Source of the DNA: Candidatus Dormibacteria bacterium
GTDB taxonomy: Bacteria; Chloroflexota; Dormibacteria; DASZGP01
Length of the DNA stretch: 64,000 nucleotides
Assembly (NCBI GenBank): GCA_046262455.1
Contig: JBHEMS010000002.1
Location: 1,889-65,888 of the forward strand
Direction of reading: 5' to 3'
Shown here: in pieces, positions 49,584 through 53,347 of the stretch
How the letters are laid out: each line of letters opens with the position of its first letter
How positions within the stretch are numbered: the first letter of the stretch is position 1
Notes under the pieces: model-generated
What the model was told of the DNA's origin: nothing
Database searches by the model: none
Seen by the model: only the letters and a program-made list of their open reading frames with translations
Position numbers and translations under genes: made by a program

Positions 49584-49988
49584 CTAGCTGGCCTTCGACG
49601 CGGGGGTCTTCAGGCTGACGGAGGTCTGACGACGGCGCCCGGCGCCGGACCGGCGGGTGCTGCTGCGCCGGGTCGTCACCCGGACCTGCGGAGCCTTCCG
49701 GCGCGCGCTCGTCGCGGTTCGACGGGCGGTGCGGGTAGCGGTCCTGCCCGCCGTCTCCGCCTTCTCCTCGGCGAGGCCGATGGCGCTCAACGCGCTATGA
49801 CGAACCTCTTCGACGAGGCCGTCGATGCGGCGCTGGTAGGGACGGACCTGGAGCCTGCCGCTCTGGGCCAGCTTGCCCCCACGCCGCTCGGCCTTCTTGA
49901 GCCAGTTCTGCAGGCGGGCGGGGCTGGTCACGAAATCAACGGCCAGCGCGGTGGCGCCGATGCCGGTGTAGACAGTCTCTCTGATCAC
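49584..49988 (-). CDS. Hypothetical basic protein (HbhA/phasin-like N-terminus, Arg/Thr/Ser-rich tail)
   Basis: AGAGG RBS before GTG 49988. IRETVYTGIGATALAVDFV followed by an RTATRTARRTATSARRK...RRSSTRRSGAGRRR tail. Confidence 0.6.
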   Translation of the reverse strand: MIRETVYTGIGATALAVDFVTSPARLQNWLKKAERRGGKLAQSGRLQVRPYQRRIDGLVEEVRHSALSAIGLAEEKAETAGRTATRTARRTATSARRKAPQVRVTTRRSSTRRSGAGRRRQTSVSLKTPASKAS

Positions 49989-50117
49989 GATGAGCACCTC
50001 TGTTCTTGAACTTTGTGCCCAATTTATAACACAGTGCGTCATGTATCTGCAACGCGTCATGACAGTCCAGTCAGGACGTGAGGCGTCGGGGAGCTGGGCG
50101 AACCCACCCGGCGCCCC

Positions 50118-51164
50118 TCAGAGAGCGATGCGGATCTCCCCCGCCATCCCCTCGACCAACTCGCCCACGTCCATGGCCGCCACCCCCGCCGCCGCCATCT
50201 CCGTCTCCAACCGGGTCGTACTCTCACGGTCGACGGCGATGAGCAGGCCCCCCGAGGTCTGGGCATCGGAGAGCACCAGGCGCTGCCATTCCTGGACGGG
50301 CCCCGCCGCGCGACTGTAGGCCCGGGCGGCGTCCAGGTTGCGCTGCGTCCCGCCGGGCACAGTACCCTTGCGCGCCAGGTCCTCAACGCCACCCAGCACC
50401 GGCACCTGGGAATACCGGATAGAGGCCGCCAGCCCTGACCCCGCGGCCATCTCGTGGAGGTGACCCACAAGGCCGAACCCGGTCACGTCGGTGGCCGCGC
50501 GGGCACCGGCGGCAAGCATCGCCCGGCTGGCGTCCCGGTTGGTCCGCTTCATCTGTTCCAGGGCAGGGCCCAGGGCGCCGGCATCGATGGCATCGCGCTT
50601 GACGGCGGTCGTCAGGATGCCGACCCCCAGGGGTTTGGTGAGGTAGAGGCGGTCACCGGGGCGCGCCCCGGAGTTGCGGATCACGCGCTCCGGGTGGACT
50701 CGCCCGACGACCGAGAGCCCGAACTTCAGCTCCGGGTCGTCGATCGTGTGCCCGCCCACCGTGAGTGCGCCCGCCTCATGGACGACCGCAGCGGCAGCCG
50801 AGAGGATCTCCTCCAGGACGATCAACTCGAGCGCCTCTCGGGGAAACCCAGCGAGGTTGAGGGCCACCAGGGGCTCACCACCCATCGCGTAGACGTCTGA
50901 CAGGGCGTTGGCCGCGGCGATGGCGCCAAAGTCGGCGGGGTCGTCGACCACCGGGGTGATGAAGTCGGCCGTCAGCACGATGGCCAGCTCGGGTGTGAGC
51001 CGGTAGACGGCCGCGTCGTCGCTGGTGCCTGGACCAACGAGGAGGTCGTCGTGGACTGGCGCGGGCAGGTGGCTCAGGACCTGAGCCAGGTCACCAGGAC
51101 TCAGCTTGCAGGCTCAACCAGCCCCGTGAGAGAAGGCGGTCAGTCGCGGACGCTTCGCGGGCAC
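50118..51164 (-). CDS. selD: Selenide, water dikinase with in-frame TGA (selenocysteine) at 51116..51114
   Basis: Track ORFs 50118..50978 and 51114..51614 share one frame. Read-through gives RLTAFSHGAG-U-ACKLSPGDLAQVL...LLVGPGTSDDAAVYRL...TADFITPVVDDP, colinear with E. coli SelD (GAGCGCK). GTG 51164 preferred start. Confidence 0.85.
51071..51104 (-). other. Candidate SECIS hairpin(s) downstream of the selD UGA
   Basis: Hairpin A: mRNA positions +10 to +33 after the UGA, CUGAGUC/GGCUCAG 7-bp stem with a 10-nt loop containing GGU. Hairpin B: GGCUCAG-GUC-CUGAGCC at +27 to +43. Hand-folded only. Confidence 0.4.
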
Positions 51165-51209
51165 CGGTCGATTATGAGCCGCTCGGTCTCCCACTAGACT
51201 GGGCGAGCT

Positions 51210-52598
51210 ATGAGCATGGGCGAACTCGCGAGACTGCTCCCCGCCGCAACCCTGGTGGTCTCCGGCGAAGAACTCAAGGACTACGCCGGCGACTGGTCCT
51301 CGCAGTCCATCCTGCGCGCCCAGCGCGGGGGCCTCGTCATGCCCGCCGCGGTCCTGCGCGTTTCCAGCGCCGAGGACGTCGCCACCGCGCTGAGGTGGGC
51401 AACGGGGTCCGGCACCGCGGTCGTGCCGAGCGGCGGCCGATCGGGCGTCAGCGGGGGCGTGCTGACCCACGGCGGCGAGTTGGTCCTGGACCTGCGGGGT
51501 CTCGACCGGGTGGTGGACCTCGACGAGCTCAGCGGGGTCGTGCGCGTCGAGGCGGGCATCCTCGGCACCGACCTCGAGCGCTGGCTGAACGAGCACGGAT
51601 ACACGCTCGGCCATTTTCCCCAGTCGATCGCCCTCTCGACGGTCGGCGGCTGGATCGCCGCCCGCTCGGCAGGGCAGCTGTCCAGCGGCTACGGCGCGAT
51701 CGAGGACCTCGTGGTGGCGCTGACCGCTGCCCTACCCGACGGGACGCTGGCAACCTCTCTGCTCACGCCCCGAACCGCGGCGGGAATCCAGCTTCACGAA
51801 CTCTTCCTCGGTAGCGAGGGAACGCTGGGCGTCGTCACCGAGGCCTGGCTGCGAGTCCGGCGCGCCCCCACCGCGCGGAGTTTCGCGTCACTGGGCTTCG
51901 CGAGCTTCAGCGAAGGGCTTGGTGCGGTCCGCCGGATGGCCCAGGGCCGCGGGTTGCCGGACGCGGTGCGGGTTTACGACGATTCCGACACCGCCATCCA
52001 ATTCCGGGCCTTCGAGCCCGCGCCCACGGGCTGCACAGCGGTGCTGGTTACCGAGGGGCTGGAGGCTGCCGAGACCGATCGCCGGCTGGCCGCGGCACTG
52101 CGCCTGGCCGCGGGAACCGAGCTCGCGCAAAACCTTGCCGGTCACTGGTGGGAACACCGCAACGACGCCGCGGGAACCTACCGGCGTGTCCTCTCGGGCG
52201 AGCTCCTGGGGCCTGACGTCGCCGCCGACACCATCGAGGTGTCCGCACTCTGGTCCCGCGCGGAGGCCGTCTACGCGGCGGTGCGGGACGCCCTGTCACC
52301 GCACGCTGAGGCGGTCGGGTGCCACTGTTCCCACGCCTATGAGACCGGGTGTGCCCTCTACTTCACGTTCGTCATTCGCTCCGCCAACCGGGAGGAGGCG
52401 ATCGCACGCGCCTGGCACGACGCCCTCGACGCGGTCACGGCCAGCGGCGGGAGCATGACCCATCACCACGGCGTGGGTCAGCTGAAGTCCGCCTGGCTGG
52501 CACGGGAGCTAGGGGCATTCGCCCCCTACCTTGAGCGCGTGCAGCGAGCCTTTGACCCGGCAGGCATCATGAACCCAAACACGCTCAGGGCGCCCTAA
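51210..52598 (+). CDS. FAD-binding oxidoreductase (GlcD/FAD-linked oxidase family)
   Basis: VVPSGGRSGVSGG FAD motif and C-terminal HHHGVGQLK...FDPAGIMNPN. Confidence 0.9.
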   Translation: MSMGELARLLPAATLVVSGEELKDYAGDWSSQSILRAQRGGLVMPAAVLRVSSAEDVATALRWATGSGTAVVPSGGRSGVSGGVLTHGGELVLDLRGLDRVVDLDELSGVVRVEAGILGTDLERWLNEHGYTLGHFPQSIALSTVGGWIAARSAGQLSSGYGAIEDLVVALTAALPDGTLATSLLTPRTAAGIQLHELFLGSEGTLGVVTEAWLRVRRAPTARSFASLGFASFSEGLGAVRRMAQGRGLPDAVRVYDDSDTAIQFRAFEPAPTGCTAVLVTEGLEAAETDRRLAAALRLAAGTELAQNLAGHWWEHRNDAAGTYRRVLSGELLGPDVAADTIEVSALWSRAEAVYAAVRDALSPHAEAVGCHCSHAYETGCALYFTFVIRSANREEAIARAWHDALDAVTASGGSMTHHHGVGQLKSAWLARELGAFAPYLERVQRAFDPAGIMNPNTLRAP

Positions 52599-53347
52599 TG
52601 GAACTGACTTTCCTGGGGACCGGCGCGGCTTTTGCCGGCGACGCCAACAACGCGGGTTACATCCTCGATCGCCGGGTGCTAATCGACGCCGGTGCGCCGG
52701 TCCACGTGCTCATCCACCAGACCGGGCACGATATCGGGGCGATCGAGGCGGTGGTCATCACCCACCAGCACGCGGACCACACCTTTGGCCTTCCCTACGT
52801 CATGGCGACGCGGGCCATCGAGGCGCCTTCGGCGCGCCCATTCACCATCGCCGGGCCCCCAGGCTTCGAGGCGTACATCGAGAAGCTGTTCGTGCTGGCC
52901 TGGGGCCAGAAGCTGAAGGCGATGGTCTGGGAGCGCCTGCGCCCGACCTTCGTCGAGCTGACGCCCGGCAGGGACAGCGAGGTGGCGGGCTTCGCCGTCC
53001 ATACCGAACGAATGGTCCACGTTGATGACTTCATCTGCAACGGCTACCACTTTTACCGGGACGGCGTGAGCTTCGCGTTCTCCGGTGACACCACGGACTG
53101 CCCAGGCCTGCGGGCCCTCGTGGAATTGAGCGACTACGTCCTCATGGAGATGACCGCGACCATGGAGGGGGACCCTTCGCACCTGTCGCTGGCCCAGGCG
53201 CGGGCGATCGTTGCGGCGAACCCCGGCAAACGTTTCTTCCTAACGCACCTGAACCGCCGCCAGCTTTACTACGTCGAGCAGGGTGACGTCGAGGGCGCCG
53301 AGCGCGCCGCCGACCTCACGACTGTGGAACTGGCGCCCCGGTCGTAA
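52598..53347 (+). CDS. MBL-fold metallo-hydrolase
   Basis: ITHQHADHTFGLPY (HxHxDH) motif. Its start overlaps the previous stop. Confidence 0.88.
   Translation: MELTFLGTGAAFAGDANNAGYILDRRVLIDAGAPVHVLIHQTGHDIGAIEAVVITHQHADHTFGLPYVMATRAIEAPSARPFTIAGPPGFEAYIEKLFVLAWGQKLKAMVWERLRPTFVELTPGRDSEVAGFAVHTERMVHVDDFICNGYHFYRDGVSFAFSGDTTDCPGLRALVELSDYVLMEMTATMEGDPSHLSLAQARAIVAANPGKRFFLTHLNRRQLYYVEQGDVEGAERAADLTTVELAPRS

Follow-up and report, generated by a model that had tools for sequence, protein, structure and literature searches.

Does an in-frame TGA near the start of a selenophosphate synthetase gene mark a broken gene, or a codon that is read as selenocysteine (Sec)? The question is raised by one locus in a stretch of 64,000 nucleotides (the window, i.e., the whole of the DNA that was analysed) from a soil Candidatus Dormibacteria bin of 1.96 Mb, roughly 80% complete and with 68% G+C. 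When sequencing runs were searched, just 4% of the sampled words were present in two soil runs. On the minus strand of the window, a plain ORF listing gives the ORFs 51114..51614 and 50118..50978. An earlier note on this DNA had proposed that they lie in the same frame, split by the TGA at 51116..51114, and together make selD. The two do share one common frame, and this TGA is the single internal stop between the GTG at 51164 and the stop TGA at 50120..50118. The note had also warned that standard gene callers would truncate such a gene or label it a pseudogene; selenoprotein genes of this well-known kind are split by gene callers as a matter of routine. We conclude, with a probability of about 95%, that selD (51164..50118, minus strand) is a functional gene and that its UGA at codon 17 is decoded as selenocysteine. 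The gene is laid out as follows.

50118..51164, minus strand: selD, selenophosphate synthetase (selenide, water dikinase), with predicted Sec at codon 17; from TIGR00476, the AIRS domains and the alignment with 3U0O.
51164..51162, minus strand: GTG start codon of selD; from the frame and the ATG starts of relatives.
51114..51116, minus strand: UGA, the predicted Sec codon (codon 17); aligned with the catalytic Cys17, with TGA or TGC in relatives.
50120..50118, minus strand: TGA stop codon of selD; from the frame.

The read-through product, with TGA translated as U, is a complete SelD. It has 348 residues, starts with VPAKRPRLTAFSHGAG-U-ACKLSPGDLAQVLSHLP and contains RLTAFSHGAG-U-ACKLSPGDL. Its match to the selD profile TIGR00476 reaches 387 bits (cut-off 125) and covers profile positions 1-310 of 311, i.e., the full length; the earlier note had called 348 residues from the GTG at 51164 a normal length for SelD. 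A second profile, NF002098, gives 381 bits (cut-off 299), and Pfam places AIRS (PF00586) in the N-terminal part and AIRS_C (PF02769) in the C-terminal part. The GTG start lines up with the ATG starts of relatives from the same genus (MPxxRPRLTAFSHGAGU).

The protein is collinear with E. coli SelD (PDB 3U0O, E 6e-83) over residues 7-344, and the two share the AIRS domains and the loop SHGAG-C/U-xCK. U17 stands opposite Cys17 of the E. coli protein (SHGAGCGCKISPKVL) in this alignment and K20 opposite Lys20, so that the replacement of the catalytic Cys17 by U, proposed beforehand from the letters of the DNA, is recovered. The E. coli enzyme differs in having Cys17 where Sec is predicted here, and for this reason E. 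coli selD needs no SECIS element. The closer parallel is the Sec-type SelD of Aquifex aeolicus (PDB 2YYE/2ZOD), with which our protein shares the TIGR00476 match, the length, the position of Sec and the Lys three residues further on. Haemophilus influenzae SelD is another bacterial protein of the Sec type. As in Sec-type bacterial selD genes, the SECIS hairpin (here a predicted one) lies inside the coding sequence soon after the UGA; unlike in the known examples, the host is a member of Candidatus Dormibacteria. Sec-type SelD is already well known, and the earlier note had remarked that such variants exist. According to Mariotti et al. (PMC4561486), Sec occurs in 19% of the SelD genes of prokaryotes, without exception at the position seen here, and a 2026 review (PMC13188914) describes only one prokaryotic selenoprotein family as more widespread than SelD.

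If the TGA is a Sec codon, then it should be a property of the lineage and not of one assembly. We searched 41 genomes, i.e., that of the window and 40 relatives, and found a SelD orthologue in 34, of which 24 have exactly one in-frame TGA (our genome counted in both). The codon position was located in 30 fetched selD loci, 22 of the Sec type and 8 others: it is TGA, within GAG-U-ACK and at the same codon, in 22 of 22 Sec-type loci, and TGC in 8 of 8 of the others. The alignment with relatives that had been suggested as a check thus gives TGA or TGC, in the same frame and at the same codon. Outside Dormibacteria, seven SelD sequences have TGA at this codon and the other homologues TGC or TGT; the residue aligned with U17 is Cys or Sec without exception. 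Identity to Cys- and Sec-type SelD from outside the class is about 45-56%. The TGA form also goes together with selA: of the 24 genomes whose selD is of the TGA type, 21 have selA, and the three without it are incomplete bins; none of the 7 genomes without selD has selA.

These patterns bear on the reading of selD as a pseudogene or as an N-terminally truncated enzyme (starting, e.g., at the GTG at 50978), in which the TGA would be a genuine stop or the result of misassembly. Such a reading would fit the 286-aa ORF that standard ORF calling opens at 50978, as well as the origin of the sequence in a metagenome bin that is roughly 80% complete. However, a truncated SelD would lose the catalytic loop with Sec/Cys17 and Lys20, and the 16 codons before the TGA are kept as protein (PRLT[AES][FWY]SHGAG; PRLTAFSHGAG here) across three Dormibacteria families. 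All 22 Sec-type genomes read, which were assembled independently, share this TGA, and the genome of the window has both the Sec machinery and a second selenoprotein (below). The conservation of the TGA, the conserved peptide upstream and the co-occurrence with selA therefore largely refute a pseudogene or an assembly error, and we regard either as very improbable.

The genome encodes the components required to decode UGA as Sec. A tRNA-Sec on contig C41 matches RF01852 with 66 bits (cut-off 47); ARAGORN also calls it tRNA-SeC, with anticodon TCA (UCA in RNA), and its 8-bp acceptor stem can be read in the sequence. On contig C57, selA (profile match of 489 bits, 453 aa) is directly followed by an abutting selB (326 bits, 625 aa), whose product has an EF-Tu-like part and the domains SelB-wing_2 and SelB-wing_3, i.e., the winged helices that bind SECIS RNA. 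The earlier note had proposed a search for these genes and had taken the lack of selA, selB and tRNA-Sec as a sign of a pseudogene; all three are present in the bin. We found no selU (ybbB) in the genome. The SelD search of the assembly returned no Cys-type SelD copy, the remaining SelD-like match being a weak one to the AIRS family (E 1e-13).

A further alternative is that a standard amino acid (Trp, Gly or Cys) is inserted at the TGA, by code reassignment or by near-cognate read-through. In other systems, near-cognate read-through or insertion of Cys is known to happen at Sec codons to a small extent. Yet TGA closes 1111 of the 1892 long open frames of this genome, selD among them, and is thus its commonest ordinary stop, which means that the code is not reassigned. 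The aligned residue of the homologues is always Cys or Sec, and the TGA form co-occurs with tRNA-Sec, selA and selB. We consider a standard amino acid at codon 17 highly unlikely, and decoding as Sec remains our preferred reading.

The search for other selenoproteins, likewise proposed in the earlier note, revealed an Rdx/SelW-like gene with an in-frame TGA at G000:C41:3375-3677 (-). Around this codon its product reads SVEFCVP-U-NYVPRAVGL, which includes the redox motif CVP-U, and the match to the Pfam domain Rdx (65 bits) runs across the TGA. Among the Rdx genes of Dormibacteria relatives, 22 of 23 also have one TGA; the remaining gene has Cys and comes from a genome with neither selD nor selA. 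A hairpin, CCGUC-GGUCU-GACGG, lies 24 nt past the UGA. The apparent start of the gene is a Leu codon (LINPTH), which stands opposite M(A)INPTH in relatives. SelW-like proteins are among the selenoproteins listed by the 2026 review (PMC13188914).

When the genome was screened for in-frame TGA codons with a GGU- or GGUC-apex hairpin behind them, only selD and the Rdx gene came up. Two other screens were discarded. A log-odds screen of codon usage around every TGA gave 155 and 133 candidates; neighbouring genes in the same frame pass it, and selD is missed because only 16 codons precede its UGA. Requiring a Cys no more than three residues from the U left 58 candidates but no additional selenoprotein that we could support; the nine that we read are, by appearance, antisense frames or ordinary gene junctions (e.g., the stop of a WXG100 protein, the junction of RseP with IspG and the stretch preceding lpd). 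A search of the 80%-complete bin for formate dehydrogenase found one molybdopterin-family match, which lacks an internal stop, and no Sec-FdhA. The genome thus holds at least two selenoproteins, SelD and the Rdx/SelW-like protein; since the bin is incomplete and the screen heuristic, further ones are possible.

Bacterial SECIS elements are hairpins just downstream of the UGA, and two hairpins can form there. We number nucleotides from the T of the Sec TGA (nt 1), so that the window coordinate is 51117 minus n.

51070..51088 (nt 29-47), minus strand: HP2, UGGCUCAG-GUC-CUGAGCCA, the probable SECIS; from covariation and the bSECIS criteria.
51081..51104 (nt 13-19 paired with 30-36), minus strand: HP1, CUGAGUC, a 10-nt loop and GGCUCAG; from its fold, and probably non-functional.

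The general bSECIS model of Zhang and Gladyshev, as summarised in PMC13188914, has a stem of 4-16 bp, a distance of 16-37 nt from the UGA, a minimum free energy (MFE) of at most -7.5 kcal/mol and a loop of 3-9 nt with a G in its first two positions. HP2 agrees with all of these criteria: it folds into an 8-bp stem at -11.6 kcal/mol (z = -3.2 against shuffled sequences), and its loop, GUC (or GGUCC, giving a GGUC(C) apex), starts 33 nt after the UGA, within the allowed range. It resembles the SECIS of E. coli fdhF and the bSECIS model in being a stem-loop inside the ORF with a GGUC-type apex and an 8-bp upper stem; it differs from them in having no bulged U and no Rfam match. Its loop lies some 14 nt further from the UGA than that of E. 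coli fdhF. An Rfam scan of 50900..51300 at E <= 10 returned no SECIS family and a single chance match to a snoRNA. The apex of HP2, A-GGUCC-U, resembles that of the Rdx hairpin, C-GGUCU-G, as expected if one SelB has both as its targets.

Comparison across genes points to the same hairpin. In families f1 and f3, no Sec-type sequence has fewer than seven of the eight HP2 pairs. The hairpin is also kept in other phyla: outside Dormibacteria, seven or eight pairs are present in three sequences of the Sec type (L053, L071 and L125), including one from Clostridiales in which the stem is fully compensated (ACUCAA-GUU-UUGAGU). The mean in 63 Cys-type sequences is 4.3 of 8 pairs, with some Cys-type genes nonetheless scoring 7-8. 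In the alignment of 29 Sec-type sequences, both sides change in five of the eight pairs, and none of 500 shuffles attains the covariation score. The register matters: pairing is 76% in place and 24-40% in slid registers. Part of this conservation acts at the level of the protein, because HP2 overlaps the conserved peptide AQVLS. On this evidence, HP2 is likely to be the SECIS.

The earlier note had put HP1 first and mentioned HP2 as an alternative. Both fold, as it had said, but the covariation falls to HP2, and HP1 is neither conserved nor consistent with the loop rules. A selenoprotein whose SECIS is HP1, or a two-part element of HP1 and HP2, in place of HP2 alone, would be in keeping with the perfect 7-bp stem of HP1 in this gene (-9.1 kcal/mol) and with its GGU at nt 22-24 after the UGA, the distance seen in E. 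coli fdhF. However, no other sequence has all seven pairs: the count drops to 6 of 7 among members of the genus and to 5 of 7 for family f3. HP1 also lacks covariation, its score being attained in 418 of 500 shuffles, and it departs from the bSECIS model in that its 10-nt loop starts with CU and has no G in its first two positions. The two hairpins exclude each other, because both need GGCUCAG. A role of HP1, by itself or in a two-part element, is thus unlikely, though less so than the readings without Sec, and HP2 alone remains the better candidate.

One observation that would favour an element like HP1 comes from family f4, whose Sec-type selD genes (L034, L037-L041, L044 and L045) keep only 2-5 of the 8 HP2 pairs. 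These genes apparently use an extended hairpin that begins straight after the UGA and is built from GCCUGC/GCAGGU and AGCUC/GAGCU; its apex has GGU at nt 21-23. HP2 is thus not shared by the whole class, and sister families seem to serve the same Sec codon of selD with different SECIS architectures.

The check proposed in the earlier note, to fold the region after the UGA, holds in that the hairpins form, but the whole 57-70 nt folds no better than shuffled sequences (z about +0.45), a measure that is uninformative because the genome has 68% G+C. Sec and Cys forms have the same MFE over the 66 nt that follow the codon (-24.1 vs -24.1 kcal/mol), and the two forms are told apart only by the position-specific pair counts.

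Sec has been replaced by Cys in SelD within a family and even within a genus, as seen in L021 and L022 (genus g4) and in L032 (G001). G001 belongs to the same genus as the window; its selD has a TGC codon and a decayed HP2. The Cys-type SelD of genus g4 retains an HP2-like hairpin, GCCGAG-GUC-CUCGGC, with two compensated pairs, and the g4 genomes still carry selA and a Sec-type Rdx gene. This hairpin may be a fossil SECIS or may have arisen by chance, since its synonymous codons, CUC and GCC, are common in G+C-rich genomes; it might also have a second, regulatory role in binding SelB.

Following the established bacterial pathway, SelD, whose N-terminal catalytic loop would contain Sec17 and Lys20, would make selenophosphate, which SelA would need for turning Ser-tRNA(Sec) into Sec-tRNA(Sec). 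A complex of SelB, GTP and Sec-tRNA(Sec) would then bind HP2 in the coding sequence through the C-terminal winged helices of SelB, and SelB would deliver Sec at the ribosome once UGA17 occupies the A site. As the assembly yielded no Cys-type SelD copy, synthesis of SelD would itself need pre-existing SelD activity, a self-dependence already discussed for other Sec-type SelD genes.

The region upstream of selD suggests where its transcript begins. The divergent intergenic region, 51165..51209, has just 45 bp and contains the following element.

51171..51176, minus strand: -10-like box CATAAT, ending 6 nt before the GTG; TANNNT is conserved in relatives.

Of 13 selD loci from Dormibacteria (families f1 and f3), 11 have a TANNNT box 6-7 nt before the start codon and the other two have ACAAT; the flanks of the box differ between loci, and the background frequency of TANNNT in this genome is about 0.001 per position. 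No full sigma-70 consensus was found. The position of the box suggests that the selD mRNA is leaderless, which would put both the Sec UGA and the SECIS no further than ~95 nt from the 5' end of the mRNA.

The significance of this selD is chiefly one of annotation, as standard callers would split the gene or label it a pseudogene; the understanding of Sec decoding is unchanged by it. Along with tRNA-Sec, selAB and the Rdx selenoprotein, the gene indicates that an uncultured soil lineage uses selenium. A full-text literature search found no paper naming both Dormibacter and selenocysteine; 11 papers combine Dormibacter with some selenium-like word, but their titles point to other subjects. The record of selenocysteine for Dormibacteria may thus be new, although the kind of gene is not. 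More tentatively, and with less than even confidence in the picture as a whole, one could propose a class-wide and so far unreported use of Sec in Candidatus Dormibacteria (at least in SelD and the Rdx/SelW-like protein), combined with a leaderless selD mRNA, SECIS architectures specific to families, switches from Sec to Cys within genera and a hairpin kept in g4.

The genes around selD are of other kinds. Downstream, the ORF 49584..50060 (minus strand) encodes 158 aa (134 aa from a later start) with a long tail rich in Arg, Ser and Thr; it matches no Pfam family, its one sub-threshold match being due to chance. Divergent from selD, and with no obvious link to selenium metabolism seen for either, are a FAD-linked oxidase at 51210..52598 (plus strand, 462 aa, with the domains FAD_binding_4 and FAD-oxidase_C) and a protein with a metallo-beta-lactamase fold at 52598..53347 (plus strand, 249 aa), whose gene overlaps the stop codon of the oxidase by one base.
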